A stretch of DNA of 64,000 bases from contig NC_043004.1 of the NCBI RefSeq assembly GCF_006345805.1, positions 62,000,001-62,064,000 on the forward strand, in the 5' to 3' direction. Under the pieces are notes generated by a model. The model saw nothing but the letters and a program-made list of their open reading frames with translations. It ran no database searches and was not told the DNA's origin. This stretch comes from Octopus sinensis. Taxonomy: Eukaryota. Positions 2,773-56,274 of this stretch are shown here, in pieces (position 1 is the stretch's first letter; each line of letters starts with the position of its first letter). Made by a program: the position numbers and the translations under genes.

Positions 2773-4288
2773 ATAAGAAAGTTTGTTTGGTAAAGCACGT
2801 GGGTGAATATATAAGAAAATAGTAAAGAGTGAAAAAACGACAGAAGGCTTAAATGTTAAAAAATATATATATTTGTGTCAAAATGTCTGGAGAATATTGG
2901 AAAATTTTTTTTCCTTTCCTTAAAATGACATAATTTCATAATTTTTAAAGAAATACCGGTTTCGCGTGTAGCTTTTCAAATTTCTGGTGACGTTATGTTT
3001 ATATTGCATGGAGTTATCGTTGTGTTTATTTTCAGGAGATTTCTAAATAAGGGGAGGTAGTGAGTGATTTCTTCCGGTGTAAGGGAGATAATCGCTTAAA
3101 AATTTTTTTCCTTTCCCTTGTTAATTTCTCTGTGTCAGTATGTTCGGATGGTTGAGTCTGGGTTTGTACTTTACAATGAAGAATGTTTCCTTGTTCAGTC
3201 TCATTTGTGTTGATGATCCGAAAGCACATTGGTAAAATGGGAAGATTAAAAATGGTGGCAGTAGTTGCTTTGCGCATTTCTCAATGTGTTCACTAAAAGG
3301 TATCATTCTATATTCTGGGAATGCAATCTGTTGTCGATGCAGTGTGCATCTACGCCTGAGTGATAGTCCCGTGGAACCCACGTAGTCTTGGTGGCAGCCC
3401 GAGCATTTGATCTTGAATTTCTGTCCCTCTTTAAAGAAGAATTCTGATCCTTCCAATAGGTTAGGACATGTTGCACAGTTCGATCTACCACATTTTTTTA
3501 CTTTTGCATCCGTAATTTCAGAAGACAATTTTGCCTTTGTGAGAATCTTTTTAAGTGATTTAGGCTGTTTGTAGCTTTTAATGATTTGGTGTATGTTTAG
3601 AATTTCCTGTAATTTTGGGTTTTTATGAAGTCTTGGTAAATTCTGGGTGATGATGGTGAAGGCTTCTTTGTTTCTGGGGTTGTATGTAGATATCTAAGGT
3701 AGTATTTTCGGGGAAGGTGTGTTGTTGTGTTGAACTTTTCTTAAAGTTTCTATGTTGATTTCTGTTGCACGTCTGATCCCATCCTCTATGAGTTGAGCTG
3801 GGTAATGTCTGTCAATTAGGGTGTTTTTGAGTTCTTGCAGTCTAAAGTTCCTGGTATTTTGTTCTGACAATATTGTGCATATCCTTCTTGCAAGGTTGAA
3901 GGGGATGTTTGTTTTAGTGTGTCTTGGGTGGCATGAATTAAAAAGAAGGTATTGTTTGGCGTCTGTGGCTTTGTAAAAAATGTCTGTTTCTATTTTAAGG
4001 TTAATTTTTTAAATTAGTATATCCAAGAATGGGAGCTCCTTTTGATTGTATTCCATTGTGAACTGTATATTTGGGTTTATGCTGTTCAATAGGTTTTTAA
4101 ATTTTAGGAGTTTATCTATGTTTTCATTCCAGAGAATGAAACAATCGTCTAGGAATCGTTTCCAATTCTCTTTTATGTATTGAGAGAGGGAGTTTCCAAA
4201 GATTGATAGAGATTCTTGGTCAATGATTATTTCCATGTATCCCATTGTTAAGTTCGCAATGACTGGTGCTGCCCTTGTACCCATAGCA
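2773..4288 (-). mobile_element. 5'-truncated Penelope-like retroelement (RT C-half + GIY-YIG + 3' end with HHR)
   Basis: ORF 4009-4326 has AMGTRAAP and WKRFLDDCF RT motifs, then IQFTME..LPFLDI. ORF 3121-3528 has the Cys linker CGRSNCATC, YVGST..LRRR..LH and ETFFIVKYKPRLN of GIY-YIG. Flanked by (CA)/(TA) microsatellites on both sides. Confidence 0.92.
2949..2985 (-). ncRNA. Minimal type-I hammerhead variant (U3-A8 core)
   Basis: RC: AGAAAT-TTGAAAA-GC tacac GC-GAA-ACCGGT-ATTTCT. Stem I is 6 bp and stem III is palindromic ACCGGT. The cleavage-site nucleotide H17 appears missing or slipped in this copy. Confidence 0.6.
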
Positions 4289-4789
4289 ATATATATATAT
4301 ATATATATACAGCCGTGCACATGCACACACGTTCATATGTACACACACAAACAAATCCTTACATACAGAGAAACAACAACGTTCTCATGCCCATGTGATC
4401 TCACCTCATCACAAAAAGTAACTACTGCTACTAATCTCTCTGGATCACTCCCTCACACATACATTTCTCATACAAATATGAACGCACATGCGCACACTGG
4501 TCATTTTCACATTCTTCAAGACACCCTATATATTTCTCCACTCCGATCACTTCATTCATGTCGGCATAATACTTTCACCCTCTACAGCTTTCTTGGTTTT
4601 GTTTTTATTCTTGATTTTACTATATACGTATGTATCAGGTCTGACTAATATGTTTGCAGAGAGTTGCCATAGAAACGAATCTGAGGCACGTGGAATGAAG
4701 CTGACCTTGAAATCTGCTGTCGATATGCTCTAAGTTTTCACATTCTACTTCACTTCCGCTGTTTACAGGAGGGCTTCGAATGAAGGTCT

Positions 4790-5255
4790 GCAACGTGTGA
4801 TCGTCGCATTGCCCATGGCAGAGAAAGTTTTCATGCCAACGCAAACTTGCAGAAAGAAATACAAGTATATGAGAGAAGAGTTTGTGGAGAAGTGTGTATG
4901 AGCCGCACATAAGTGCACGAGTGTTTTCGACGTTTCCAAGATGGCCGAAAATTAGTCAATATTTACGAACGTTCTGGGAGACCGCAACCAGCAGAACAGA
5001 AAAAAAAACATTATAGTTGTGCGTGCAGTTTTGAGGGAAAATCGTCGAATCACCGTTCGTAACAATTCAAAAGGATAAGAAGATTAGACACGGTTCAGGT
5101 CAATCTATTGTCGCTGAAGATTTGCGTATGAGACGCGTGTCATCCAAATTTGCGCCAAAACTACTTTCAGCTGAGCAAAAAGACACCCGGGTTTCAGTTG
5201 CACAAGGACATCCTTGATTGTGTCGAGAACGATGAAAACGTTTTGAAAAGTTTTG
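4790..5255 (+). mobile_element. Mariner transposase N-terminal (HTH) relic
   Basis: Frameshifted translation: MSRT*VHECFRRFQDGRK..ERSGRP.TSRTEK..VLRENRRITV..EDLRMRRVSSKFAPKLLSAEQKDTRVSVA. Related copy at 19110-19475. Confidence 0.8.
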
Positions 5256-5359
5256 CGTGGGTCTCAGAGCAGGTATCGCCAAGACTTTCAGGAAGCTTCA
5301 TGCTGTTTCTCTTTATGTAGAGTGATTCTAAGGGGTCTCTCCGCTGTATAGGAGTAAAT

Positions 5360-6567
5360 CTGAGAATAGCACATAAAGGATCAGTAATAAGATAAAGTAG
5401 GCCAACATTTGGTATGACAACAAAAAATACCAGATGTCATATTCGTCGATAAATTCCTGACGGCGATCTAGCATACATTATTAGAAAAAAAAACATTAAG
5501 TAAGGCTAGTCTACGAATTAAAGTACTAGAAAGGCACCGTGCCCCATTAAAAGAGATTAAAGAAGGGAAAAGCTCGTCCGTGCTCTACCAACATGCTAAG
5601 GCAGAACATGAAGACTCGATTAATAGCATAGAGGTTAAGGTATTATCAACACATAGAGCTGACATGACACTTAGATTCCAGAAGCTATACACATAGCAGT
5701 AGACACACCGAGCCTTAATAGAATACACGAATGGAACAGAAACACCCACCATCACACCACATGACTAAAGACAGAAAAGATGAGAAGAGTAAGGAAAAGA
5801 ACTCAGAAAAAGAATCGTAAATAATACACAGAAGCATACGACGTAATGCACCCACAATAGACACATATGCATTTATCTGGGATACTTTTTAGAAATTATG
5901 ATAGATGTATAAAAATTATATGAATAACTATATAAGTAGATAAATAAAAAAAACATATAAATATATTTGTCACATACCTGGGATAAGTATAATATATAGA
6001 TATAGTTAAAATAAATAAATGAATCTATATAAAATGCATGGATGCATAAAACATACGAAGCAAACTCATACATACATACAAATACACACACAAGAAATTT
6101 CATGGACGGCCACAAAAATGTCAACAACATGATTAGCAACGACAGCAGCGGCGGCGGTGAAAACGATGGCAATAACAACAAATACAACGATGGCAATACC
6201 CTGGGCGAACACACATACAGAGAAAAATAGGGGAGCTGTACCATACTTTCGGCTATTAGAAAACCAGCAGCACAACCGGCTGACGGGAAGGCCACACTGC
6301 TGCTAAAAACTATGACACACAAGCATAGACGCATACACACACACACACACACACACAGACACACACACCTACACATACACACACGCAATGATACACACCT
6401 TAGACGAAAAGTGCCACTGAAGAGGTCACGGATGTGTGATGAAAGATTTCCGGAAAATGGATATGAATAAAAATAATGAAATAAAAACAGTAATGAACAA
6501 GTGAAGGAAAATATATGGAGCCTATGATTAGTTTCCAAAATAAATAACCAAATAACTGTCCCGAAAT

Positions 6568-6577
<10 letters not shown>
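5360..6577 (+). mobile_element. PLE 3' portion (GIY-YIG C-terminus + 3' end with HHR), same family as 17820-18577
   Basis: 5545-5740 reads IKEGKSSSVLYQHAKAEHEDSINSIEVKVLSTHRADMTLR..EAIHIAVDTPSLNRIHEW. It ends CCGAAATACAACAATAT, like 18562-18577, and abuts (TA)n. Confidence 0.75.
6414..6453 (+). ncRNA. Type-I hammerhead motif, canonical core
   Basis: CCA-CTGAAGA-G-GTCAC ggatgt GTGAT-GAAA-GATTT-C-CGG. CUGANGA, a 5-bp stem II, GAAA and a UUC site are present; stem I is weak. Confidence 0.6.
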
Positions 6578-6609
<32 letters not shown>

Positions 6610-6974
6610 CAATGGATGAGTATGTGTAATATATATAAATGTGTAGTTTTCAACCTATCTTCTCCAAACTATACTAACATATTCCTTATATGCCAAGGAT
6701 GGCCATGTACTATAAGTTTTTGCTCACAGCTCCCGCGTAAAGCAATAAATCTGTGAAATGTTTTTTTCTAATTTTTCTCTCTGAAATCTGCAGTTTCAAC
6801 CGATCCTTTCCCTTTTCTAATTCTCTATATGTCCTGCCTACATATATTCGCTCTCTTGATTCTTTTTGTCTTTTTTCTGACTAAAGGCCACACTCAAAAT
6901 GACAGAAACAACTAAAAGAATAATAAAAAAAATCTATGCCGTTTTAATACCAAGCAACGCCGGGTATCTCTGCT

Positions 6975-7008
<34 letters not shown>

Positions 7009-7199
7009 GTGAATCAAAACGAAGAACAAACAAGAAAAGACAATAACGCGAGAACGTGGTACAAGTACTGCATTATCAGAAATAGAGCAAAGTCCAAAGG
7101 GAGGGAAGAGGGAGGAAGAAAATCTCCAACGATACTCGCGTGGTTGCATTTTTACATGTGTGTACATATATATATATATATATATATAATATATATATA

Positions 7200-7276
<77 letters not shown>

Positions 7277-7284
7277 TATAAAAT

Positions 7285-8231
7285 ATATTGTTTACAATGG
7301 TATCAAGCGGTATGGCATGCGTTAATTACCATGGAGGTAATGCCAGAGGGTAATAAATTATAAATGAATAATTAACGTGCTATAAGTGGCAACAGCACGC
7401 TAAATATAGCAGTCAGAACATGACTACAAACTCAAATTTTCACTGATACCCGTTAATTGAAATCGGGGGAATACACAGGTATTCTTATCTCCCTTACCTG
7501 TAACGAAAAGAATCTTAAATTGAAAATCTAGTCATCCCCATATTGTCACGATTTCAACCTTCGTTAAAATGTTACTACTTTCCTGAGCGAGTCTTACTAA
7601 CCCAAGGGTCATAGAAACTGTCAATCTCAACAATGTTCGCGATGACCGTTTTTAATGTTGCCGCAAATTTAAAATTTAAAAAGTGATTGAAATCGTAGCC
7701 ATATGGTTATGCCTGGCTTTTCAACTTACGATTCTTCCCGTCCGAGGTACGGGCACTCAAAACATCAACTCATTCCCCGTTATCAATTAATGCGTATCAG
7801 TGAAAATTTTTAGTTTAGTGGTCTTCTGACTGCTATTGTTAACGTGTTGGTGCCACATGTAGTACCCTTAATTATTAACTAATAATTTTTTCTTATGGTC
7901 TTACCACCAGATATTATTGTAAACAATCATATCCTTATCAATATTTTTTAGAATTTTTTATTCACTTGCATTACCTTTTTAAATTTGCTGTGGCATTAAA
8001 AACGGACAACGTGCACATTATTGAGACGGTTAGTTTCTATAATACTTAGGTCAGCAAGACACGCTGAGGATAACTAAGTGACAATTCAATTTAGGATTAT
8101 TTTCGTTATTGGTACATGGACTTAGAATTTATGGTCATTCAATTAATGTGTATCAGTGAAAAATTGCGTTTTTAGTCGTCTTCTGGCGCTATTTTTAGAG
8201 TCATTGGGGCCACTTGAAACACGCTTAATTA

Positions 8232-8235
<4 letters not shown>
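7285..8235. repeat. Three diverged copies of a ~100-170-bp repeat end (7285-7470 +, 7775-7930 -, 8138-8235 -)
   Basis: Shared motif AATAATTAA..GTGGC..ATAGCAGTCAGAA.A.CACTA..AATTTTCACTGATAC.C.TTAATTGA in all three. The first two form an inverted pair. Confidence 0.7.
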
Positions 8236-8280
<45 letters not shown>

Positions 8281-8300
8281 TATATATATATATATACATC

Positions 8301-8365
<65 letters not shown>

Positions 8366-8369
8366 CATC

Positions 8370-8407
<38 letters not shown>

Positions 8408-8444
8408 TGTACATGCATATATATAATTATATAATTATAATTAC

Positions 8445-9139
8445 TATTATTTTTATTATTATTATTACTTTTTTTTCCTCTTTCAAATTTGCTTCCATTT
8501 CTTGCCGAGTGTCTTCCCGACTCTTAGGGCAAAGAAACTCATAGTATACATTGGTAGGCCATTAAACTAAACTCAATAGTTCGTTCATTTTTTAAATTTT
8601 TCTTTTTTTATTAAATTAAAATACATGGGTAGTAATATTTCTCACATCGACAATGCTCTTCTCAATACGTGTGATGTACCAGTTAAGACAATCTTTTGCA
8701 CTTCTTGCAGGGATGGTAAGCCAGGGATCATTCTCATATAATTTTCGGTTCCCTTCTTGATCATTCCTAGTGCTCCTATGATCACTGGTATTGTAACCGC
8801 CTTGAGATGCCACATTTTCTCAATTTCAATGAGTAGGTCTTTATATTTTCTGAGCTTGTCAAACTCTTTCGCTGAGATATTATGATCACAGGGGATGCTC
8901 ATGTCGATCAATAAGCAAACTTTATTGTTTTGGTCTTTCACAACAATATCTGGTTTATTGGCCTTGATGGTTCGGTCTGTATGTACTGGAAAGTCCCACA
9001 TAATGGTTACATTTTCTCCTTCAGTTACAGCCTCAGGGTGGTGATTATACCACTTGTTGGCAGTTTTGATATTGTAATGCCGACTTATTAGCCAGTGTAG
9101 ATATTGGCCAACTCTGTCATGTCTTAATTTATACTCCAC
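8445..9139 (-). mobile_element. R4/Dong-clade non-LTR retrotransposon 3' fragment (restriction-like endonuclease)
   Basis: Open ORF 8642-9139 with RHD, WDF...TD, KPDIVV..LIDMSIP.D, KLRKYKDL and PVIIGALG. The 3' UTR has a stem-loop and A-run, then (TAA)n; (TAA)n also flanks the 5' side (9140-9185). Confidence 0.9.
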
Positions 9140-10074
9140 TTATTGTTATTAGCGTTATTATTATTATGATTATTATTATTATTAGATAATAAAACGAATG
9201 GCTTATACCTCATAGCTTACTAGTAAAGCACGATCATTTTCATAGTGTTCATTATGTATTGGGCTCATGGGAGATACGAAATTCTTTCATCATTACAATT
9301 CTTTCGACACATCTAGCATCGATCATTCACGGGATGCCTAACAACGGGTTTAGGAGTATTCGACGGTGCAGGGGTGTATCCCATCGTTTGATAAATAGAT
9401 ATAACTCGTTAAAATAACCACTCTGCAATGAATATATATATACGTGTATAGGCATGAGTTTATTTTATGCACAACTGTACTTTTAAAAGAATAATTGTAC
9501 ACGTGAACACAAAACATTGGAATGCGGCATGTTTAATTTCTATATAGTATGCCAAGTTGCACAACAGTTACACAGAAAAAGCTAACCAGATCATAAACTG
9601 AGAATATTTACGAAAATATTATATCACCGAGCGTTGCAATCGCCATAGCAAATATTGATAAACGATTCTATATTTAAACGGCAGTTTCTCTAAACGATAA
9701 CAGATGTGCAATTTCTTTTTTCTCACATTTATGGAGGATTGACTCAAGCACCCATTAACTATGCTACTTACAGGAATGCAACTCTCCACATATCGGATTC
9801 CATTAATCTTCGATGTCTTCTGTGTAGATGGTATTTCTTCAAAAAATAGCTTAACATACTTCATAGTATAGCCTATTAATTGACGATACGTAAATATAGA
9901 GAAATTTTGAAATTTCTCATGAAAAGATTGTATACACGTACAAGTATGCACATAAATATATGCACACTCACACACATATAGACACACACACACACACGCA
10001 TATATGTATATATATATATATATATAAATATATATATATATAAATGTATATATATATATATACAAGCAACACGC

Positions 10075-10174
10075 CCCCCAAGTTCAATGGACGTGCTGAG
10101 TTGTCAACCATTTAAACCAAATTTTCTCAAAACAACTTGTCCGACCGTCCCATACCCCACCTTGAGAAACACTG
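10075..10174. mobile_element. hAT/Charlie-like MITE terminus
   Basis: Ends CCCCACCTTGAGAAACACTG (RC CAGTGTTTCTCAA). A similar end, GGGGTCC...TTGAGGATCACTG, lies at ~30400-30471. Confidence 0.4.
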
Positions 10175-10199
10175 ATTTAACCTAAATTTGAGACGCCAG

Positions 10200-10743
10200 C
10201 AAAAGAAGAAATAGGGATATACTTTTTTCTATTCCAAAGGAAAACGATTTTATTCACGCAAATATGCAACCGAAAAGTGTAAAGTTCCAGTAAGTATAAG
10301 GCTGTTGACTGGGAGAACACAAACATGGTTTAAACAGTAAGCTTGGCAGGAAAGAAACGTGCCTTTAAACAGTACAAAAACAACAACAAAACGGGAGGTA
10401 CAGTTATGTACAGGTTGACCGATGAAAAGCAGGACAAAAACGATGCATGCAAATGGGTTAGCTGAAAGTAAATCTAGATGGAAAAGCATGATGATTTTTT
10501 GGCGCAAACAGCACGTGCATTTCTCTCGCGTGCGCGTAGTATCGATCGTAACAGCTGATGTACTTGCGCGTACAAATGCCCGTTCCCACGGCTTTATCGA
10601 TTGCATTCTCACCTAGAATCGATTTTTGTAATTTATCAAGATTTATACACGCCCTGATACACCTGAGTGCAATCAGGTGGAGGATGCTCGAGATCCTAGA
10701 AGACACACACAGAGACAGAGAGAACGGAATTTATATGATAGAT
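10200..10743 (-). mobile_element. Possible non-autonomous Helitron/Helentron-like element
   Basis: RC begins A|TCTATCATATAAA..CTCTCTGTCTCTGTGTGTGTC, resembling Helitron-type 5' ends with an internal GTCT/GT microsatellite. No 3' end identified. Confidence 0.35.
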
Positions 10744-11021
10744 ATAATGTTCAGATTATATCGAACATTTATATATTATAGATGTTTTAGAATGTTCGTA
10801 TACATGCATCGTGTGTTTGAAATATTACCGTACGGTATTATTTCTCTCCAAATGTGGAATTAATTACTTGATTTCAGTTTTAATCTGCATTTTGCAATTT
10901 GAAGACCAATATATGGAGATATATAAATATGAATGTTGAAGTTCATTCTGTGATAACTGATTCCATATCTGAAAATAATAGAAAGTAAAATTAGTGAAAT
11001 TATAATCATATTAATTAATAT

Positions 11022-11256
11022 TTATTTCCTTACTACCCACAGGGGGCTAATCACAGATGAGACAAACAAGGACAGAACAAAGGGATTAAGTCGATTACAT
11101 CGACCCCAGTGCGCAACTGGTACTTAATTTATCGACCCCGAAAGAATGAAAGGCAAAGTCGACCTCAGCGGAATTTGAACTCAGAACATAACGGCAGACG
11201 AAATACGGCCACGCATTTCGCCCGGCGTGCTAACGTTTCTGCCAGCTCGCCGCCTT
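11022..11256 (-). mobile_element. tRNA-derived SINE, family A
   Basis: RC starts AAGGCGGCGAGCTGGCAGAAACGTTAGC (A box) and has GAGTTCAAATTCC (B box) and core GGGGTCGATAAATTAAGTACCAGT. Flanking repeat AATTAATATTTATT (TSD). Confidence 0.9.
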
Positions 11257-12088
11257 TTCAATTAATATTTATTATCATTGTAAGGCGTTTGTTACGTTAA
11301 ATTGATTACGGGATATATATGATGCATTTTCAGGTCAGCATAACTGTGACCGATATCACTGATTCTGCTTGAGAAGCATTCATATTCCGCTAAAGCAATC
11401 TAATAAAATATCTTTAATAATAGCAACAATTTTTTTTTATTAGAGCATGCCCATAAATTAATCGGGGAAGGGTAAAGTAATTTGACATGAAACCAATATT
11501 TGTCTATGAGTGAGGCGATTTAATGGAACAGAAAATATTTAGGTAAATTTTAACTTTAAATTTAAAACTTAAAAGCAGCAATTTATCTTGAATTGTCTCA
11601 TCAATGCCATTTTAGTTTCAACTGAAATGAAAACTGTTTGATGACTTACTGCAAGGAGACAGTAAAGCGTAGGATCATACAAATGTCAGGCGTACAATGA
11701 AAGAAATCACAATAGAGAAAAAAGCGAAAGTGATCATAGATATAACAATTTAGCAGTTTATGCTATTAGATTTGCATGTGACTCAGAATTAGATGTGCAT
11801 TCTGCAGATAACTAATTTAATTCTCGTACATTTCCTTATGTATTATTCAAGTGTATGCAACAGGAGTATATGAAGGGAATTGTTCAAAGGTAAAACGACA
11901 ATTATTCATTGAATCTCGTTTAAATTTTAAAGAAAGACGATAGTAAACATAACATTTTAGTAACCAAAATGTCCTATTTCCTTAGAAAGACACTAAGACT
12001 CACAAACATGTAGATGTGTGTGTATATATACACATACACACAAACTCACACACACACATTTATATATATGTATATATATGTATGTTTA

Positions 12089-12230
<142 letters not shown>

Positions 12231-12234
12231 AGAC

Positions 12235-12541
12235 AAAGTAGGAATGCTAAAGTAATTTTATCATGGAAAACGTTTTAGTACCGGTTTCAGACCTTTTCTT
12301 CTTGGAGTAAAGCATGAAAAACAATTATATTGTGGAATAATTGAATGAAATGTTTTTTAAAAACATATTTGCATAGTTTTCAAATGCAAGGGACATTTTC
12401 CTCTTTTCTGTCTGTTTCTCTCTTTTTTATTCTTGTGAAGGCGTGGTAGCAGGTAGTAGCAAATCTAAAAGGATATTTGTCATGAACTCTTGGATTTAAA
12501 TGTTTAAGCAGCAGTAGTTGCTAAGGAAGGATGCGACTGAC

Positions 12542-12587
<46 letters not shown>

Positions 12588-13690
12588 AGAAAAGAAGAAG
12601 AAGAAGAAGAAAAGAAGAAGAAGAAGAAGAAGAAGAAAAGAAGAAGAAGAAGAAGAAGAAGAAGAAGAAGAAGAAGAAGAAGAAGAAGAAGGGGTAGGAA
12701 AATAAGAGAAAGAATATTAAAAATACGTGTGTGATATGATAGTTGTAGTATGTTGGTGGAACCCTCTTAATTGATCAAGTGTCCTAAGAGTAACCTTTGA
12801 GGTAGTAATATGAACTAGAATTGTTCTGAATAAATTCATGTGAATTGACTGTTTCGAATATATCGTTTTTAATATTTGCATGGATATTTTTCTAAGGCTT
12901 TTCTAGTAGTGTTATTTGGATTGGATTCATTCAAAAGGGGTTTATATTTTGTGATAAAACATGACTGACTACAGGTTGCATCATCCTGGAAATTATAGAG
13001 GGAGAAAATTCTGAAGGTGTGTTGTTCGTTAGTGGTGCAAATGTTAATGTGTTCGCTGAATGCTAGTTTTCTGTATTACCGCATTTTGATCTGGGATCTA
13101 TGTAAAACCATCCTTTGATGTAGACTGTTTTTGGTTTGGCCATTGTATTGCTCTCGACACCCTGAGCAAGTTAATATGTATATTAGATTTTCCAAAGCAT
13201 ATATGGAGTTGTTTTTCACTGTAAAACATAGACCCTTTTTGACAGAGAATTCCGATCCCTCGATTAGGTTGACGCATGTACCACATTTAGGTTTACCGCA
13301 ATTTTTTACTGACTGCTTCAGTGTTGTTTTCGAGTGTACTTGGGCTTGTCGTAGCAGACTTTTCATAGATTTGTGTTGCCTTTTGCTCTTTATAATGGTG
13401 TGCGTTTGGAGGATTAAGTTCATTCTGTGGTCCCATTGTAGTAGGGAAATTTTCTGAAGGATGATGTCGAAGGCTTCATTATTTAGGTGGTTGTGTGTGG
13501 AGATGTATGGTAGGGCTTTTGGTTGTAAATCCTCCTGTAGTTTGGTATGTCTGATTTCGTGGACGTTGAGTTGCAGGGTACGTTGATAACTTAGATCAAT
13601 TAGTGATATTTCGTAGTTCTTGGTAATGAGAGTTTCCTTCAGTTCATGTGATCGCGTATTCCTGTTGCTTGTATTAGAAACTATAGTTCA
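12235..13690 (-). mobile_element. Penelope-like element 3' half with internal (TTC)n in the 3' UTR
   Basis: ORF 13076-13423: KNCGKPKCGTC..ENLIYILTCSGCREQYNGQTKNSLHQRMVLHRSQI (GIY-YIG), with ALPYISTHN upstream. A GAAACCGGTA HHR remnant lies at 12278-12287. Confidence 0.88.
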
Positions 13691-13945: not shown

Positions 13946-13980
<35 letters not shown>

Positions 13981-14295
13981 TTCCTCTTCCTCTTCTTCTT
14001 CTTCTTCGCTCCCTTCTTCGGCAACTACTGCTGCTTCTACAAACAAAACCAAGAACTCATATCAAATATTCTTTTAGGACTGGGGCTACCTAATACCTGC
14101 TAACAAGCAAACAAAAGAGTAAAAAAGAGAGTAAAAAGAAAAATGTCCCTTGTATTTGAAAACAATGGAAATATTTTGGAAAAGCATTTGATTTAATTTT
14201 TCCACAGTTTTAATTTCTTTCGTTCTCCACTCGAAGTTGAAAACGTCGCAAATATTAGAATCGTTACTAAAATCTTCTAAATGAAATTGCTTTAG
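13690..14295 (+). mobile_element. Internally deleted copy of the same PLE family, head-to-head with the previous element
   Basis: PNIQELRLPKVNKDLQPKALPYI mirrors LNVHEIRHTKLQEDLQPKALPYI. It then jumps to 3' UTR blocks (GCAACTACTGCTGCTT, AAATGTCCCTTG.ATTTGAAAAC) and (TTC)n 13897-14006. Confidence 0.8.
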
Positions 14296-35144: not shown

Positions 35145-35180
35145 AGCATACCGTGGTTTCGTCAGATACTATTCATTGCT
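35145..35180 (-). ncRNA. Minimal type-I hammerhead variant (A3-U8 core)
   Basis: RC: AGCA-ATGAATA-GT atctg AC-GAA-ACC ac GGT-A-TGCT. All three stems close and the site is GUA. Confidence 0.72.
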
Positions 35181-35342
35181 TTGAATGAACACCGGCTAAT
35201 GAACGGTGTCAGGTCTAATAGTTCCTGAGTAAAAAGATTATTTGTAAGGAGGTAAGTAGTTCTGGATTTTGTGCAGTTAGGTTAGATACAGAATTGTAAT
35301 GTGAATGGTGCAAGGGATGTATGGGGGTTAGTGGTATTAATT

Positions 35343-35574
35343 AAGGCGCCGAGCTGGCAGAAACGTTAACACGCCGGGCGAGATGCTTAGTGGTATTTCG
35401 TCTGCCGTTACGTTGTGAGTTCAAATTCCCCGAGGTCGACTTTGCCTTTCATCCTATCGAGGTCGATAAATTAAGTACCAGTTACGCACTGGGGTCGATG
35501 TAATCGACTTAATACGTATGTCTGTCCTTGTTTGTCCCCTCTATGTTTAGCCCCTCGTGGGTAATAAAGAAATA
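35343..35574 (+). mobile_element. tRNA-derived SINE, family A
   Basis: AAGGCGCCGAGCTGGCAGAAACG...GAGTTCAAATTCC. TSD GGTATTAATT at 35333-35342 and 35575-35584. Confidence 0.92.
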
Positions 35575-36927
35575 GGTATTAATTGAAGGGATAGTAGTGT
35601 TCTGTATTATGTTAAGTGTTCATATTTTTGTTGCGGAAGATGTTTACTGATGAAAATTACCTCTTTATTCAATCTTTGTTGCACTGAGGTGTTCTGTGAA
35701 CATTGATAGAAGTGGAAAATTTGGAAATTATGATTAAGATTCTTAGCACACCTTTCTATGTGTTCACTAACTTGTAACTGTCTGTACTGTGGGTAGCGAT
35801 ATTTGTTCTTTGTGGATAGTGGTTCTTCGACGGAGTGATATTCCTGTTTGTTCAATATAGTGGTTACCACATCCTAAGCATATCTCTTTTATGTACACTT
35901 TTTTATGTACATTCTTTTATGTACACTGATTTGTTCTGCTTTTTATATTTAACCCTACAGTCTCTTATGTGGTGTTTTAATAAAGTATGTGATTGAGTAT
36001 TATCTGGTAATTGATATTTGATTTAGATGTATTTCTCCATTTCCTATCTTGTATTAGTAATTTGTGGTAAATCATTTTACCTTTGCCCATATAATACAGT
36101 AAATTAATTGATTGCATCGCAATCATTAACATTTATGTATTAACTTTGTTGGGTATTTCACTAGCAGTATATTGGATATATGTTATCCCATGGAGGGTTG
36201 CATGTACAACCCCTATCTCAATTTGTATATATATATATATAAATATACATATATATATATGTGTGTGTGTTTGTGTATGTCTGTGTGTGTGCGTTTGTAT
36301 GTATATGTATATAAATATAAAGTTTTCTCCTCTCATTCTATATAATAATGTAGATTTTCGAAAATTTATTTTTTAGTTGTTTAATTAAGATATTTTGAAT
36401 ATTTCTAGTGGAAATGCTTTTAGTTAGTGTAAAATACATCATTGTGTTTAATATCAATTACAAATTAGGAATATTTTCATTAGACTGAATTATTATGTAT
36501 ATAAATACATTTATTGAAATTATTAATTGATGATAATAATAACATTAATGAAAATAATAAATGAAAAGTGTTATTTAACTTACTAACTAGACTTTGTAAC
36601 AACTACAATAATAATTTTAGTATTGTATAGTTTATATTTTGTATTCTTATTGCAACATTCTAATTTTGTTATTTACGAAAGAATAATAAAATTTAGATAT
36701 TTGCAATTTATAATCTTTACTGTTTTCTGTATTCCATAACATACGTATATAGGAACAGTTGGTTGTTAGTTACTGTGAATAATCCTTATTTAAATAACTT
36801 CAAATTTTGTTACTTCTGAAATACTAGTAATATTTTGATATCCATTATTATAGCTTAACTCTCTACATATTTTGGGTAATATACGTTGTAGTTATTATAG
36901 ATCTAAGTTTATCTTCATATTTAATAC

Positions 36928-37944: not shown

Positions 37945-40160
37945 CTAGTTTTAGCTTATGAGCTGTGGCCATGCTGGGGCACCGCCATTTGGTGTTGCTA
38001 CTTGGTTTCACTTCACGAAAGCTTTCTAGCAACTGCCATTTGGTGCATGAGAGAGTTCGATGCAGCTGCCCTCATCTGCCCCTCCTGCCGTGAAGTTGGT
38101 TCATCTGGGACACCTGACAGGAAGAGATCCACCTTCATTTTAAAGACATCTGCATCCACCCCATGCAGGTCTCTCAGGTTCTTCGGGAGGATATTGAAGA
38201 GCTGTGGGCCTCGAAAGCCCAGGCTATCACAGAATCTTGTCCTACATCTTGATGGCAAGTTTGGAGTCCTAGGCACCACGCAGTGGCGCCCAGTTCTGGC
38301 ATTTGCGTAACTCTCGATGCCAAAGTTCAGGACACGTCCCTCCAGGATCTTCCAGATGTATATTATGGCATATCTTTCCCGCCTACGCTCCAGGGAATAT
38401 AGTTTTAATCTCTTGAGTCTTTCCCAGTAGCTTACATTCTGCATAGAGGCTATCTTCTTCGTGTAGCTACGTTGGATCGCCTCGAGCTCTGTGATCAACT
38501 TGACACTGGATGGTGACCATAACTGAGAGCAGTAGTCAAAGTGGCTTAGGACAAGTGTCCTCCAGAGGACCATCATGGTTTCTTGTTCTCTTGTTCTAAA
38601 GGTTCTGAGGATCCATCCGGCCAGTCGTCTACATTTCATTGCCAATTTAGCAACATGTACACGAAAGGTCGCGTCATCACTCATGTAAATACCTAGGTCA
38701 CGCGCTGATTGTGCCTCTGGGATTGCTATTCCTCCGTGTCCAGTGTATTCATTGGGTATTGCATTTAGTTTTGCATGCTGATAGTATGGAGCTTGAAACT
38801 TTTCAGCATTGAACTACATGCTATTCTTTTCGGCCCACTTGTATATTTTGTCTAGCTCACATTGCAGGTGTTTAGTGTCCTCAGGGTTCTGTATTGCCTG
38901 TGAAACTTTTGTATCATCTGCATAACTTGTGATCGTGGCTCTCTGCGTGGCTGAGGGCATGTCTGAGAGGGCCATTATGAACAGTAGTGGTCCCAGAACA
39001 GTGCCTTGCGGAACACCGCTCACTATTTGCGTGTTAATGGAAGTGGCCCCATTGGCCACTACCACCTGACTTCTATCTTTCAGAAAGTCATGAAGCCATT
39101 CTCCCAGTTTTCCAACTATGTTGAGATCACGCAGTTTGTGACATATCATTCCATGATCGACTTTATCAAAGGCCTTTGCAAAGTCGAGATATATCACTTC
39201 CACATTTGAGTGGTTGAGCAGCCGTTTCAGCACCCAGTCATAGTGTTGTAGGAGCTGAGTTAAACAGCTTCTCCCTGGTCGGAAACCATGTTGGGTGTCG
39301 GGCAGCAAGTCATTCTCTTCAAGGAAGGTGATCAGGTTCCTTCTGACTATTCGTTCCATGACCCTGCTGATGTGTGAGGTCAGAGAGATAGGTCTATAGC
39401 TCTTGGCTTCCGCTCTGCTACCTCCTTTATGAATGGGGCATATTTTACCTTCCTTCAGTTTTCTTGGGAGTTTGCCAGCTGCAAGGAAGCTCTGAAAGAG
39501 GAACTGCAGTGGTCTTGCTAGGACTCTCTTACATGCTTTTAGGAGGATTGCCGGGAATCCATCGGGGCCAGTAGCTGAGTCTGTTTTCATTTCATCTATA
39601 GCCTTGATTACATCGTCTTCCTTTATATCGATGTAATCTATCGTCGCCGCCTCTGATTTTATATCTGCAGTGGTAAAAAAGTCAGTTGGATTGGTGATTT
39701 GGAGATGCCCAAGGGGTGGAGTGAAAACATTCTTGAATTGCTCATTCAGTATTTCACTTAACCTCATTGGTTTTCCTGTAAGTGTGCCATCCTTTTCGAG
39801 GAGTGGCCCTATTCTACAGTGCACCGTAGCTGTTTCTTTGGCATACCTGTAGAAAGCTCTGGGGTTAGATTTTATGTTGTCTATAGCCCAGGCTTCTTTG
39901 TCTGCTCTTTCTTTTTCATGGGAGAGTTGCAGACATTTTTCGATTTCCAACAGTTTTATTTTTAGGCGGGACTTTTCACTGCTTTCAATGTTTGTTTAGG
40001 CGATTTGAAAATTTTGTACGCCGTCTCATTAAAATTTTCCTCTCTCTGGGGATGTTGTTCTTGTGTACAGTGGCCTTTCTCTCTGGGAAAAAATTTGTAG
40101 CATATGGCTTGCATTACAGACATGAATTGTTGAAGTTTCACGTCGATGTCTGGCGAGGAG
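37900..40160 (-). mobile_element. Young 5'-truncated CR1-group LINE (RT) with (AATC)n tail
   Basis: ORF 38814-39950 (GPDG, YRPISLTS, QHGFR, YLDFAKAFD, GVPQG, YADD) and ORF 38013-38684 are in the same frame, separated by one stop. There is a frameshift near 39955 and a (GATT)n tail at 37900-37944. Confidence 0.95.
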
Positions 40161-45431: not shown

Positions 45432-45482
45432 TCATCATCATCGTCGTCGTCATCATCATGATCATCATGATCATCATTATTA

Positions 45483-45540
<58 letters not shown>
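45432..45540. repeat. (CAT)n/(TAT)n compound microsatellite
   Basis: Direct reading; source of the poly-H/Y/I ORFs. Confidence 0.95.
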
Positions 45541-45541
<1 letters not shown>

Positions 45542-45542
45542 G

Positions 45543-48257: not shown

Positions 48258-48486
48258 TATTTCTTTACTACCCACAAGGGGCTAAACACAGAGGGGAAAA
48301 ACAAGGACAGACAAACAGATTAAGTCGATTACATCGACCCCAGTGCTTAACTGGTACTTAATTTATCGACTCCGAAATGATGAAAGGCAAAGTCGACCTC
48401 GGCGGAATTTGAACCCAGAACATAACGGCAGACGAAATACGGCTACGCATTTCGCCCGGCGTGCTAACGTTTCTGCCAGTTCGCAG
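48258..48486 (-). mobile_element. tRNA-derived SINE, family A
   Basis: Close match to 11022-11256. 15-bp TSD AATACGTAAAATATA at 48243-48257 and 48487-48501. Confidence 0.93.
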
Positions 48487-49403
48487 AATACGTAAAATAT
48501 AATGTAACTTCAACCCGGCGAAATGATCGACGTACTTTAAAATATCGGAAACGTATACATGCATCACAGTTGGTGATATCCTGGACGATAATGTCTATCA
48601 CACTAACAGAGTTTCAGATAATTAACGCTCACTCACAAACTTTAAGATTTAATATGTCCTGGGCGAAAAAAAAAGATGTGTCTAAGATGACTGGCTGCGT
48701 GATCGAACCTAGAAATACAATAAATTCTATGTAATATATCAAGAACATAATAGCGGTTATAAATAGATTATGTGTAGCGATGTAGCATGTACATGGTCAA
48801 AGAGTAATGTCGGTTACTTCGATAATATCCTCTTGAGGAGGAAAACGATATAATATAGTTATAAATTATGTTGCAAATTAGTTAGAAATTTAATAATCTT
48901 TTCAGACATTGAACTAGTTGTACAGTTAATGGATACTTATTTCCTTTACGGACCTGTTATTTTAGTGTCTACTACTTGTTCGATAGTCAATTAGATTGGC
49001 ATTAGATGCGCTATATTGATAGAAAATAAAATTACAATGATGAAGCAACAGATGTCTAAATGTCTATGATAAATTATAACTAACGAGATTATGAAGTTTT
49101 GATAATATTTTCTCTATTTAGAGAGGCAGTTTCTATTTGTACTTACATGTACATCGTATTTAGATAACTTTCCTTCATAATCATCACCAGCTAACTTGTT
49201 ATTGAACATGTAAACACAGAAGTGTCCTATTACATAACAACATTAGAACGTATAATGCCTAGAGCTAATGCAGTGTGATGCTGTGTACACATCCACATCT
49301 AACAAGAGAAAGCCACGATGGATGAGAAAAGTGAACGGAGAAGCGATATGCATAAATCTATGTTTTACTTATAAGCATAACTGTAGATACACAACACTGA
49401 TAT

Positions 49404-49490
<87 letters not shown>

Positions 49491-50099
49491 CATGTATATA
49501 CATACGACGTGCGATGGGTACATTGTGGCTATATTATAAACATTCACATTGCTTGCTTTAGATTTTGTTGACTACACAGTAAAAAGGTGTCAGATGGGCA
49601 CCTTCGGTGTGAAAAAGCAGCACCGTGGGGCAATTTACTCTGACAGAAGTATGGAGCTCAGCATGTTGCACTGCTTCTTATTCATGCCGTGTGCTCCAGT
49701 ACGAACAATTCAGAGTGTGTGGATGTCAGTCTGAGGACATGTAACGAGAGTGATAAAAATGATACATTCAGACATCATGGTGTTTGGAGTGATCACTAGT
49801 GGACCTTTAGAATCTTTGAAACTGAATCTGCATGACGTGGGAAGTTTTCTAAGACCATACATGTTCTTTCATTGTTTTTGAGTTTTAACACTCATTTCTT
49901 TAGCTTCAAACATAGCCCCCTGCTTCGGAAAGGACAACGCCTCTCAAATCGATCAGCACGAAGAGGTGTTACCTTCTCTCTCTTGTTGTAAACGGAATGA
50001 AAGTAATAAAGTATCTGCAAATGGAAACACCACACAAACCATTTCCAAAACGACCACAGCCGGCAGTACAATTGAAACCTACGAAAAAATAAGAATAAC

Positions 50100-51450
50100 A
50101 AATGCTACTGTCGCGGTTTCGCTTCTGTTGTAAAATTTAATCAAGAGACAATCAACATAAAATTGATGATTTAAGAACTTAAAAAATTTAATTCAGAAGA
50201 AACGGTACAGATGTCAATTTGACCAGCCCACCCTTGTGAAATTATACAACACATATTGCGCAGAACTGTTATCTGCAAAATGCTATCATTGAACTAAAAA
50301 AAATGAGCCATCAACAATTTAAAAAGCGTTTGCAACCAATTTGGAGCAAAATTGTATACGTGGGTAGGGGAAGAAATATAGTACTGTGGAATTAAGGTTC
50401 GCATCAGATGACGAAGCCAAGCAACACTCCACAACACTTGATCGGCGAGTCTCAAAACTAAAAATTGCGGAAATACCCCCAGAATTTGACACTTGTTTGG
50501 TAGTGACAGCCATCCTACTTGACATTGCGGAACAGGTTGAAATTCTGCAAATGAACTACTTACACCAGTAAGATCGGTGGTGGGAGGGACTGGAGCTTTT
50601 AATTCAAGCAGGCCAAGAAACGCTCAAAAAATTTCAGGCCTTATCGACTAGACAGAAGATGCGAAGTTACAAGTATCGGAGGAGAGGCGTAAAACAAGTT
50701 GCTATCTCTGCGGACAGAACGACCGCCTCAAAATATTTTGCCTGTACTGATCAGACCGAAACGCCAGCGACCTTCAAACGTAGTACCACAGCAGCACCAA
50801 ACGCGAGCTATATTACAGGCAACACCAACACCACCTAAAACGGCAACGATTACACAGATTACAGAAGGTGAAACGACAACAGCATCAGGTGTTGCGGCGA
50901 AGTAAACAAGAATCAAATAAACAAGAACGTAGACAAGTAACTTATATTTCACTACAATCAACGCAAATAATGAACACCTAATGAAATGTATACATGAAAA
51001 TACTAACATTACACGAAATGATTTTCTCTGCATTCGATTTAACGTTAATGATCACATACATATATTGAGCATAACTAACACAACCTTAACTGAATTAAAA
51101 GAAAACCACACCATTGCGGTGGATAATCGCCAAAGAACAATACCCAAATGTTTATATAAAACCTGATCGGGGAAACTCCCACGCCCAGCCAGAAATGTGA
51201 GAAAAATATTTCACGATAGGTTGGTAGCAAGGGCGCTTTTTCAAGGACAATAGGTCACTGGATTTCGATGTGCAAACGACGTTGTAAGGATGTCGGTGAT
51301 GAAAGGTTGAAAAAGAGCACCTTTCTCTCCGGCAGGGGTTTTATTAACCATTTCAGTTGGCAAAAGAAGACTGAGACTGAAGAGATAGGGCTTGCCCTCG
51401 TGCAAATTTGAAGATAGATAATGTAGCTAGAATCGTTAGAATGAATGTGT
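50100..51450 (+). mobile_element. Probable internally deleted L1/Tx1-like LINE relic
   Basis: ORF1-like VELRFASDDEAKQHST..RRVSKLKIAEIPPEFD and an APE-start-like NLYFTTINAN (~50939). A C-terminal-like piece KKSTFLSGRGFINHF lies at ~51310. Confidence 0.4.
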
Positions 51451-51567
51451 CCTACGTGAGCATAAATTTCTATATATATGTATGTCTGTATGTATGTGTA
51501 CATACATATTTATATGCATAATGTATGCGTGTATGAAAATATATTCATGTATGTATATCTAAGCAGA

Positions 51568-51683
<116 letters not shown>

Positions 51684-52178
51684 TGCATATCTATATTTGT
51701 ATGTATACTTTTGTGTTTACATACCTTCTTATATTTCTATAGATATATAGTCACACACACGAACACACATTCAGCGAATGCACATAATTGATTATATATA
51801 TGTCTGTGGCCCATAGTTTTCCTATATTATTTTCTTTGTACACAAACACCAACCAAAATCCATGACAAATGCGATTATATTTAGTATACAAAACGCGCAG
51901 CTTATACAACAGCTTCAAAAGCATTCCAACATAGTTTTCGTTTGTTTTGTTTACATATACCATGAATATTTATCTTCGATCTCTATTAAAATAGAACATT
52001 ACAGGTCGTCATGGCGTCGGTCATCGTTTGTTTGTTACACACCACAAAGGGTTATTGAATAACAAGAGCGAGTATATAAGAGTGAAACACAGAAAGAAGG
52101 AAAGAGAATTAAAAAAGCCACGTACACATGAAGGCAAAAATATTGAGGAAAAATTACATGTGCGTACGTGTGTGTGTG

Positions 52179-52212
<34 letters not shown>

Positions 52213-53355
52213 CGTGCGTTCGCATCTTCTGTGATTTTTACCACTGACCTGCTATGCTACTTGAGGTTCAACGCCCGAAAGGATGCAACCTCACTATTTG
52301 TTATACGTACATACATACTTACATGCATACATATATTCATACATACCAAATGGCATCGAACACTGACACAGTTTTTCTTGGATAATGTATAATATTCCCC
52401 ATATATTTGTTGTCTTTAAAGCAAGCTTGTGAAAGAAATGATTATATTCTTTGAGTGAACACGAATACATTTTTTTTTAATCGTAGGAGTAATATAACAG
52501 TAAAATACATACCACTTGGAATAATTACTATATATACATCATGGTCACGAAATAATACGTTGTCTGCCATCAAATTCAAATACCCAGGTTTTGGACAATG
52601 AATGTCCCACTATATTTTGCCAGCAGATAACACTGCAGAAACCGATTCTAATGATAATACAGATGTAAAATGGATTACCTCTAGTGAAAATAACATTAAC
52701 AGACTCAGAAAAAGACAGGGCAGTTGGGCATCATTATAAAATGTAATGCTAAAAATGAATACACGAATCACCAGCTATGACTGCATGATGGATTCTTCAA
52801 ACTGTATGGGTATTACCTTCGAGAATCCCTCTTATAGGCGAGCGATAAGTGAAACCTTCCGTACTGTAAAACGTTACAGAGAAGAATAGAATTACGGTCA
52901 CCCACACATTTTTCTTGGTGTCAAAAACTTATATTCTGCTCACATGGTCAATATCAAGAGACAATTTGAACTAGTCACAACATCCTCATGAGGTGAGGTT
53001 TAAGAATGAAGTCTGGGCGAAATAAATGCCCGAGAAATTGTCGACAAGACAGAACTTGTCCATAAATCGCTACATACATTGTTGCTATGATTAAAGTCAT
53101 CTTAATATAACACTGACAATTTCTACCAACGAAATTACAGTAAATATTATTTAGAGTGGAGTAAAACAGGGGCGCATGTTGCATCAAAACATACAAGAGA
53201 CAACCAAAGTAATAAAAGTATCAAAAAAGAAATCTCTGTGCAACAAGAATCAGGATGCTAACTAAACAGTATACCAATACTAAAAGATTAACGTTTACCC
53301 TAACTCCACGATAATATAACCCGAATGAAATTAAAGGCAATATTTCGGAATTCTG

Positions 53356-53572
53356 AAGGCGGCGAGCTGGCAAAAACGTTAGCAAGTCAGGCAATATGCT
53401 TAGCGGTATTTTGTCTGTCTTTATGTTGTTCTGAGTTCAAATTCCGCTCAGGTCAACATTGTCCTTCATCCTTTCGGGGTCGATAAATTAAGTACCAGTT
53501 GCGTACAGTGGTCGACCTAATCGACTGGCGCCCCAGAAAAAAATTCCGTGCCTTGTACCTAGAGTACAAATG
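53356..53572 (+). mobile_element. tRNA-derived SINE, family A, nested in PLE
   Basis: AAGGCGGCGAGCTGGC head. 17-bp TSD AATATTTCGGA(A/T)TTCTG at 53339-53355 and 53573-53589. Confidence 0.92.
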
Positions 53573-54555
53573 AATATTTCGGATTTCTGCTGAAAGCTAC
53601 TATTCACAGAAACACTAACGTACTGCGAAAACAAGGATGAATCACTGGTTAAAAACGGAAGAAATTATCTTCCACTTAAGTGTGGGATTAAACACCATAT
53701 GACTTCTCTGTGCTCTGTGACCAAATCCAAAATTTCCCAAATACTGTCCATAAACGAAAAAGCAATTCAATTTACAATGGAAAAATTTCATTGAGTTACT
53801 AAACGACAAAGAACTATCAAAGAAGCAGACAACGGAAGTACTGTAATCCTGAAAGACACAGAATAGTGCAAAAACCAATTGCTAGGCATGCTAGAAAGCG
53901 ATGCCTTCCACGAAAAAGCTGGAAATCATAAACAACAAAAAGCAATGAAAAATCTCGTATCCAAAAATTAATCTGCATTTAAAAGGCCTGACCAAAAAAG
54001 AAACAGACATCACGAAATTTGAATGTAAACCTACGTTTTGCTACGCCCTACCTAATATACACAATAGCAAGATAATTCATGAAATCTGCAATAAATCACC
54101 AGGCAAATACATAAATATCCTAGCGCCAGAAGAGTTAAAGTGAAGATCAATTATAGCTGGACTAGCCTGTGAAATCCATCCCCCTAAGTAATTTTATGGA
54201 GATCCTACTGAAATCCTTACTGAAATACATAACAAATTAGAGACGACATAGATATGCTAAACAAATTAAGAGATATTTGTTTCCTTCGATGCTGTTAATC
54301 TTTGCATCAATATCACACATGACTATGGAATAGAAACAATAAAATTCTGGCTGGAAAAGAACGCTGAAGACTTTGGTTAACGCATAAAACCTGTTTTTAT
54401 TATTGAAACAGTAAAATGTATTCTTCAGATAAATTATTTCCTATTTGATGACACCTACCATCGACAAAAATATGGAAATGCGATTGGAGCAAAAGCAGCT
54501 CCTGTTATTGCGAACATAATATTGTGTATATTTAATTCACAATATATGAAGTATG

Positions 54556-54880
54556 TGAGGGCGCGTGGCTTAGTGGTTAGGGCATTCGGCTCATGATCGT
54601 AAGGTTGTGAGTTCGATTCCCGGCGACGCGTTGTGTCCTTGAGCAAGACACTTTATTTCACGTTGCTCCAGTTCACTCAGCTGGCAAAAATGAGTTGTAC
54701 TTGTACTTCAAAGGGTCAGCCTTGTCACTCTCTGTGTCACGCTGATTATCCCCGAGAACTACGTTAAGGGTACACGTGTCTGTGGAATGCTCAGCCATTT
54801 GCACGTTAATTTCACGAGCAAGCTGTTCCGTTGATCGTATCAGCTGGGACCCTCGTCGTCGTAACCGGCGGAGTCTTTAA
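54556..54880 (+). mobile_element. tRNA-derived SINE, family C, nested in PLE
   Basis: GGCGCGTGGCTTAGTGGTTAG (A box), GAGTTCGATTCCC (B box) and TTGTGTCCTTGAGCAAGACACTT core. Perfect 12-bp TSD ATATGAAGTATG (54544-54555, 54881-54892). Confidence 0.93.
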
Positions 54881-56241
54881 ATATGAAGTATGACTGCAAA
54901 ACTATGGATATCCATTTCACCATTAAACAAGAGAGAAATAGAAAATATCTGGATGATGGTTTTATCATTTCGAACGAAACAGTTGATAAACTTTTGGAAT
55001 TTAAATCGATACTTGATAATAAAAACCCCAACATTCAGTTTACAATGGAATATAGCAGCAACCATTTCCCTTTCTTAAATATTCTGATGAAATCGTCAAC
55101 AAAAAATTGTAACCGACATTTATCATAAAACAACAGACACCGAGCAATATGTTTGTTTAGCTCATGCCACCCAAAACACATCAAAAGAAATATTCCCTTT
55201 AATTTAGCGAAAGGATTTGCACAATAGTCACTCATGGAAATACCCGGGACCGCCGTATTAAAGGACTCAGAACAGCACTAACTGAGAGGCACTATCCCCT
55301 CAAACTTATAGATGATGGAACTAAAAGTGCCAAGAAAATAACCATTAAAACTTTAAAGGATACGAAGCGAAACGCCAGAGCTTATCCAAAAATACTACCG
55401 TATATATCAACTCAGAACCTTAGAAACAATGAGGCATGTAACACTACTGTACAAAACCTACCAATGCTCACTAGGGATCCAAGAATGAACATTCTGAAAA
55501 GAAATTTATCAAATGTAAAAAGCAACCCAAATCGATGAAAAGATACTAATAAATGCAAAGATATACACAAGGACCACGAAACCAATGGTTAAAATATGCG
55601 GACGTGCAAGCTATAGAACTTACTCCAACATACTGGAAGGCTAGAAATTCCAATTCAAACAAGGAGAGAGGATCACGATTAAGATTAATTTGTGCATAAG
55701 AGAATTTATGTTATAGATTGTTCAACTTGTCGATACAACTATATAGGACAGAAAACTATGTTATTTAGACTGAGAACCACACTACATAACGAACAGATCC
55801 GTTGCCCAAGGTATAGACAGATACCTTCAGTGAACACATACAGAGATGTGTAAGGTAATTCCAAAAAAATTCAGTTTGTCCCATCTACCAGTGCAAGAAA
55901 CTATTTCCGTACAAGAACGTTTAAATAAAGACAATTAATTTATCGAAAAATACAGCACACGCCTAAATATGAACCCATATCCAATTTTGGACTGAGTATA
56001 TATTTTAAATCATGGTCACATATCCATCAATCTACATATTTCCTCTCACTACATTAGCTCATGAAATTTTGTACGTTTATTTATTCCACGCCCAAAATGA
56101 GCAGTTACCTCCCCTGTCCCGAGTAATAACTATCGCCAATTACCTCATCTTAGATATTTCTATCTCTTGATTCACACTTTCATGGACTTTGAGGAAGATG
56201 GACTAAAATCTTCTTAAGAAAATACGAAATCACAATTTCAA

Positions 56242-56274
56242 TGTCATGATTAGCGAAAGCGAAACCGTTCGACA
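56242..56274 (+). ncRNA. Minimal type-I hammerhead variant (A3-U8 core)
   Basis: TGTC-ATGATTA-GC gaaa GC-GAA-ACCGTT-C-GACA. 4-bp stem I, GNRA-capped stem II and a near-palindromic stem III (ACCGGT with one change). Confidence 0.72.

Follow-up and report, generated by a model that had tools for sequence, protein, structure and literature searches.

The window analysed here is a 64,000-nucleotide stretch of Octopus sinensis DNA (contig NC_043004.1, positions 62,000,001 to 62,064,000). It contains three copies of Penelope-like elements (PLEs). 3' of the endonuclease remnant of each, on the same strand, lies a motif with the layout of a minimal type-I hammerhead ribozyme (HHR) in which the usual C-G pair between core positions 3 and 8 is replaced by U-A or A-U. 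These features are listed below, with clades named after an endonuclease tree described later.

2759..4290, minus strand: PLE copy 1, 5'-truncated, with the end of the reverse transcriptase (RT), a CX5CXXC linker, a putative GIY-YIG-type endonuclease and the 3' untranslated region (UTR); open frame 3124-3693
2949..2985, minus strand: HHR motif of copy 1, U3-A8, from a young family in clade C; lacks one A where cleavage site and stem I meet
35631..35880, minus strand: remnant of the PLE copy 2 endonuclease; the stretch from here to the HHR motif contains a ~245-bp common repeat
35145..35180, minus strand: HHR motif of copy 2, A3-U8, clade A; stem III palindrome broken
53573..55968, plus strand: PLE copy 3, a decayed near-full open reading frame (ORF; RT and endonuclease), in pieces, 30-38% to the reference frame
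56242..56274, plus strand: HHR motif of copy 3, A3-U8, clade B; stem III ACCGTT

Hammerhead motifs in the window

The box spanning positions 3 to 9 reads TTGAAAA in copy 1 (2979-2973, minus strand), ATGAATA in copy 2 (35176-35170, minus strand) and ATGATTA in copy 3 (56246-56252, plus strand). A preliminary description of the window had placed the boxes at these positions and strands, and the window letters, a descriptor scan and shuffled controls all bear this out. The box lies 142 nt past the endonuclease stop in copy 1, ~440 nt past the endonuclease remnant in copy 2, of which ~245 nt is the inserted common repeat (35,335-35,580), and ~270 nt past the remnant in copy 3. We scanned the window with a descriptor that leaves positions 3 and 8 free. 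When GAAACC was additionally required, the scan returned exactly the three motifs, whereas 60 local dinucleotide shuffles gave 0.1 on average and never more than 1; the loose form returned seven places, against a shuffle mean of 1.7. An Rfam scan of the window, whose response to canonical minimal HHRs was not gauged, gave no hammerhead among 104 matches at E<=5.

All three window copies are damaged relative to their own families. Copy 1 matches an intact 811-codon frame at 94% and its family copies at ~95% DNA identity, and its 6-bp stem I consumes the sole A after U16.1, so that the cleavage-site base is out of register. Most of its relatives have two A's at this point, with a single A in 3 of 30 loci selected by protein similarity. 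The motif at 2949-2985 is also listed as lacking base 1.1, with an extra U before position 3. Stem III is a palindrome (ACCGGT or ACCATGGT) in the families and is broken in copies 2 and 3. In copy 2 a single change has turned the ACCATGGT of its relatives into ACCACGGT, with a self-duplex energy of -3.9 kcal/mol compared with -11.2 kcal/mol for the palindrome; copy 3 carries ACCGTT. Because of these defects, the full minimal type-I layout that had been ascribed to the three copies holds for their families but is imperfect in the window copies themselves, in the register of stem I (copy 1) and in stem III (copies 2 and 3).

The 3-8 pair across the genome

We counted pair states in genome G000 with a pattern requiring a stem II of 7-11 nt and an ACC..GGT stem III, using the reversed pattern as control. 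U3-A8 gave 2,896 matches (control, 97), A3-U8 gave 1,618 (control, 261) and C3-G8 gave 48 (control, 24); thus, the literal CUGANGA core accounts for 48 short-stem matches versus ~4,500 for U-A plus A-U. U3-A8 is the majority state and has been published before (see below), and A3-U8 is, as initially proposed, the unusual form. With G10.1-C11.1 fixed, cores having neither A3 nor A8 gave 333 matches against 8 in the control. A hand count of the first 100 comprised 52 U·G, 23 G-C, 4 G·U and 3 C-G pairs and 18 mismatches, and both G3-C8 and U3·G8, states absent from the preliminary description, recur as subfamilies. Under the same constraint, the mismatch classes A3-V8 (71 matches) and S3-A8 (25 matches) consist mostly of scattered copies of the main families. 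By extrapolation, mismatches total ~156, roughly 3% of all matches, an approximate figure since pattern strictness differs between classes; this level is in line with neutral decay following insertion. Over all 16 combinations at positions 3 and 8, we saw no PLE-linked mismatch subfamily with a short stem II. The changes at 3 and 8 are family-level states that stay paired, and the families do not share a CTGANGA consensus with such changes scattered independently among copies.

Lengthening stem II to 12-22 nt yielded 8,370 non-canonical matches (control, 1,001), of which the first 100, examined by hand, were 89 true U3-A8 motifs, 8 out-of-register repeats of short-stem motifs, 2 A3-U8 motifs and 1 artefact. 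Canonical C3-G8 motifs with a stem II of 12-30 nt numbered 1,131 (control, 91); hence, an apparent absence of canonical HHRs from the genome was an artefact of the short stem II limit. One stem II family occurs with both C3-G8 and U3-A8. Linkage to a PLE was checked for two long-stem families, that of locus L408 and that of the window relic at 14237 described below. Any tblastn match to the PLE protein was found at 1 of 30 canonical long-stem loci.

The canonical type-I motifs with long stem II (L138-L167) form several dispersed families that are not tied to this PLE protein and are possibly retrozyme-like or from other PLE clades. Another long-stem family (stem II GGTC...GACC) has U3-A8, is very abundant and hardly varies; its members frequently occur as inverted pairs 2-5 kb apart.

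Some patterns drew chance matches. The B3-U8 class (2,662 matches) was rejected as a mismatch family since, by hand count, 95 of its first 100 rows are coding repeats of mariner transposase and long interspersed nuclear element (LINE) RT that have no stem I. Penelope-type C-terminal coding sequence formed a third such family, with 2 rows among the first 100 for A3-U8. An A3-U8 scan of metagenomes was uninformative: it gave at least 119 loci, with no PLE match among those listed and both stems formed in two.

Phylogeny and covariation

We built an IQ-TREE phylogeny of endonuclease DNA with 55 rows, 50 of the 80 extracted plus 5 added by hand, leaving out 30 near-identical young copies and loci with coverage below 85 codons. 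Clade A, which holds window copy 2, includes A3-U8 and G3-C8; clade B, with copy 3, is A3-U8; clade C, with copy 1, includes U3-A8 and U3·G8; and clade D includes U3·G8 and C3-G8. The tree requires at least seven changes of pair state, excluding two U-U single mutants and three rows that lack a box. A single origin of purine-3 was rejected by the approximately unbiased test (p-AU 0.005, or 0.003 once the box-less rows were removed). This rejection owes much to a single decayed copy, L408, and recombination between ORF and 3' end could also produce it. A single origin of the G8 forms was likewise rejected (p-AU 0.007). The three window copies, which had been taken for one non-canonical lineage, fall into three separate clades, which together with the rejection of one purine-3 origin leaves a single lineage unsupported.

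Positions 3 and 8 are paired in all of 20 subfamily representatives (AU 7, GC 6, UA 4, UG 2, CG 1), which were picked by hand, a misaligned 21st row being omitted. Pairing in stem I is 86% in the same rows, with changes on both sides at all 5 pairs counted; none of 500 shuffles reached the score. G5, A6, G12, A13 and A14 are identical in 20 of 20, an identity partly imposed by the search patterns. The core U4 G5 A6, A9, G12 A13 A14, A15.1-U16.1 and H17 is present, with the protein-selected loci and assembled contigs providing motif-independent samples. The 30 protein-selected loci comprise 29 U3-A8 and 1 U3·G8. In assembled contigs aligned to a G3-C8 copy, G3>A and C8>U reach 45% and 43% of depth (X15), 88% and 87% (X16), and 83% and 76% (X19); the contigs carry three organism labels, one run possibly stems from the sample behind the window, and one row is not shown. 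Among the contig rows listed there is no variation at U4, A6, A9, A13, A14 or A15.1, and a change at G12, in a CpG context, reaches 3-11%. That changes at 3 and 8 stay paired, first suspected from three copies, is hence seen in family-level genome counts, contigs and representatives.

Three stems surround the core, with stem I open, a stem II of 1-4 bp and a minimal stem III. The 3-8 pair is not explained by a simple hairpin: in clades A and B the flanking positions 2.1 and 9 form no pair with each other, which leaves the 3-8 pair isolated. Family-typical copies are predicted to cofold through the palindrome as a double hammerhead with H17 unpaired.

The carrier element

A protein search of the genome with the family frame returned 102 copies scored at 90-100% identity, several with frames of ~800 codons open; the U3-A8 family is therefore young. 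Intact frames of ~811 codons contain RT motifs, although Pfam RVT_1 matches weakly (E 0.005, below cut-off). An endonuclease motif, YVIKC...YVG, was spotted in them by eye; Pfam GIY-YIG gave no match. Between RT and endonuclease lies a Cys-rich linker (CGRSNCATC and CGRPNCGTC). The A3-U8 families show more decay, with 635 codons as the maximum open frame among the closest protein matches, 4 of 150 matches having been fetched.

Insertions are inverted or tandem, with the corresponding pseudo-long terminal repeat structure. At G000:C1665 two same-strand HHRs are spaced 3,979 nt apart, and the upstream HHR lies ~210 nt before the first ATG of the next unit. We regard the element as Neptune-like by likeness to a published description (PMC8557442) rather than by placement among reference RTs. 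As far as the parts of that source available to us go, the element shares with Neptune/Nematis PLEs the RT, the CX5CXXC linker, a putative C-terminal GIY-YIG-type domain and inverted or tandem insertions by microsatellites, and differs in having an upstream reading frame before the RT frame in the tandem unit. This upstream frame (L410:553-1401, minus strand) starts ~20 nt into the tandem unit and is open for at least 283 codons.

A further young PLE family, L406/L407 (G000:C1:206854717-206855810 and C9752:59100-60191), has frames of ~780-800 codons open. Some 170 nt past its ORF, a 6-bp inverted repeat surrounds only TTGAAA and four bases, possibly a collapsed HHR.

Relation to known hammerheads

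PLE minimal hammerheads whose 3-8 pair covaries through five paired states are a real feature of this genome; what seems new is the A3-U8 and G3-C8 subfamilies, U3-A8 being known. In the parts of the literature available to us, U3-A8 is described as a rare natural core variant (PMC3088659) and is reported for PLE minimal HHRs of S. mansoni with ~1,300 matches (PMC4209133), a study whose Fig. S3 also has one U3·G8 row, from Saccoglossus. As far as they could be compared, the minimal HHRs of that study (Cervera & de la Peña 2014) lie, like ours, in the PLE 3' repeat and have a short stem I, G10.1-C11.1, a tiny palindromic stem III and a predicted dimer. In contrast, non-C-G cores are the majority here, stem II measures just 1-4 bp, in most cases without the extra base after A9, and A3-U8 and G3-C8, neither of which is among the Fig. 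S3 rows examined, form whole subfamilies. Perreault et al. 2011 (PMC3088659) likewise describe natural 3-8 covariation including U3-A8, but their variants are rare and A3-U8 and G3-C8 are absent from the section on core variants. The Poseidon PAc HHR of Anolis (PMC11167929, in the part consulted) is also a PLE hammerhead in which the 3-8 pair was tested and cleavage needs protein; C3G/G8C partly rescues cleavage. Unlike the motifs described here, it has a natural C3-G8 pair and belongs to another PLE clade, and its G3-C8 form was engineered. The portions available of a 2026 retrozyme preprint and of PMC6962438 add nothing on core variants. A review, likewise seen in part, links small dimeric HHR variants to PLEs (PMC6765202).

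We found no report of natural A3-U8 or G3-C8 in the literature searched, a search that did not reach Lünse et al. or Przybilski & Hammann 2007. The former (RNA Biol 14:1499), judging by its title, reportedly concerns dimeric cleavage by small HHR variants associated with PLEs, and may already include 3-8 variants.

Proposed function and alternative explanations

The presence of the motif in thousands of copies with the C-G pair replaced suggests, at the level of sequence, that it was kept working. We consider it probable that the motifs are minimal type-I hammerheads in the 3' ends of Neptune-like PLEs, that the 3-8 pair has been repeatedly exchanged among U-A, A-U, G-C, U·G and C-G, and that the motifs still self-cleave, weakly and dependent on dimers, probably with the help of protein, and so process tandem transcripts. 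Two motifs would pair through their stem III palindromes to form a double-hammerhead fold. Where insertions are in tandem, a transcript carrying two motifs, as at G000:C1665, would be cut after H17 and release a unit-length RNA that would begin ~210 nt before the next ATG. The proposed general acid of the hammerhead is the 2'-OH of G8 (PMC6155905, in the part seen). Position 8 would then supply this 2'-OH and not its base, so that pairing, rather than base identity, would be kept. The protein encoded by the element may aid folding and buffer weaker pairs, to judge by analogy from the Anolis PLE. Selection would act on master elements.

Several observations weigh against this reading. In the available part of a full pairwise scan of one type-III HHR, a G:C swap alone rescued activity, and other core doubles, including A-U and U-A, had low activity (PMC9901934). 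In the Anolis PLE, according to the part of the study consulted, cleavage is dispensable for insertion in vitro and no RNA-seq reads end at the site (PMC11167929). Stem I is slipped in the young, high-copy clade C sublineages L071, L197, L191 and L193 (base 1.1 absent, an extra U before position 3), and no HHR core was found within ~450 nt of the ORF end in L406/L407. As to the numbers, loose patterns match coding repeats by chance and the raw counts are therefore inflated; all counts are of copies rather than independent events; the contig shares are marginal and unphased; and the pairing in 20 of 20 representatives arises partly by construction because one row was chosen per recurring subfamily.

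The main rival explanation has the hammerhead fold preserved for some task other than catalysis, for example to dimerise RNA or to bind the PLE protein while reverse transcription proceeds, with negligible cleavage and any shape-holding pair being enough. The poorly active A-U and U-A doubles, the dispensable Anolis cleavage and the young sublineages whose stem I is slipped or whose core is missing all fit this account, as does the weak activity of minimal HHR dimers in vitro (PMC4209133, in the part seen). However, the bases G5, A6, G12, A13 and A14, which serve the chemistry, are identical among the representatives and, allowing that the patterns partly imposed this, nearly unvaried in the pattern-free contigs. 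Moreover, the 3-8 pair is described, in the source as far as available, as existing only in the active conformation (PMC3884650); repeated compensatory swaps of such a pair are therefore indirect evidence of selection on the active fold. We regard a purely non-catalytic role as unlikely, if worth keeping in view.

Neutral drift is a far poorer candidate. It would hold that ribozyme selection was lost in master elements, that AT-biased mutation changed positions 3 and 8, and that pairing is coincidental among few related founders. The independent events are indeed few (four changes at position 3 and six at position 8), the window is AT-rich, and one core-less family spread anyway. Yet the change to G3-C8 does not run towards AT, five distinct paired states occur repeatedly with no mismatch counterpart seen among the short-stem PLE-linked subfamilies, and flips between purine and pyrimidine, which need two transversions, occurred at least twice. 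An artefact of short patterns matching high-copy repeats is very improbable and already refuted for PLE-linked families: three unrelated coding repeats do fit the loose pattern (DETW of mariner, NYRPVS of a LINE RT on the opposite strand, and the Penelope-type C-terminus), but they lack stem I, whereas the true motifs lie at a consistent distance past the PLE ORF, have covarying stems and are recovered from protein-only loci.

Retained weak cleavage also admits a stronger version, which we put forward tentatively as possible but somewhat doubtful. A3-U8 and G3-C8 may be working ribozymes unreported in nature, their core chaperoned by the element's protein, in one lineage that passed through all four Watson-Crick forms and a wobble. 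Over 10,000 HHRs might then escape CUGANGA searches in this genome, with many probably doing so in other animals.

The 3-8 pair has so far been defined by crystallography and engineered rescue, and here evolution gives a full covariation series in one lineage. Minimal PLE hammerheads have low activity in vitro and one such HHR is dispensable for insertion; natural 3-8 variants offer a ready assay panel, with and without the PLE protein. As anticipated in the preliminary description, the CTGANGA pattern misses the variant HHRs, and Rfam reports none of the window motifs. CUGANGA descriptors badly undercount HHRs in this genome, where the ~1,180 canonical matches are outnumbered roughly tenfold by variant ones; hence, PLE groups called HHR-free merit a search with a paired N3/N8 descriptor.

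Other features of the window

Two decayed HHRs and a further PLE remnant lie between the first two copies.

14237..14272, plus strand: HHR relic with a TTGAAAA box, GAAAC lost, of a U3-A8 family with long stem II; inside an inverted duplicate of a PLE 3' end
12273..12305, minus strand: another relic from this family; its 3' half (GAAACCGGT A and the 3' strand of stem I) is intact, whereas its box and stem II are degraded
12920..13687, minus strand: divergent PLE endonuclease-region remnant, upstream of the 12273..12305 relic

The TTGAAAA box at 14237-14243 (plus strand) had been noted as a fourth relic. It is indeed a decayed U3-A8 HHR, with a 72% alignment to L092, whose U3-A8 HHR has a 13-nt stem II, but it and the second relic near 12,290 belong to one further U3-A8 family with a longer stem II.

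The common repeat of ~245 bp, short interspersed nuclear element-like by size and abundance, occurs at 35335-35580, in the 3' UTR of copy 2, and at 11013-11267, as well as in many fetched loci. A 165-codon frame at 8642-9139 (minus strand) presumably resembles the C-terminal part of a non-LTR element. LINE-type RT frames at 38013-39995 (minus strand; Pfam RVT_1, 97 bits) are unrelated to the HHR motifs.

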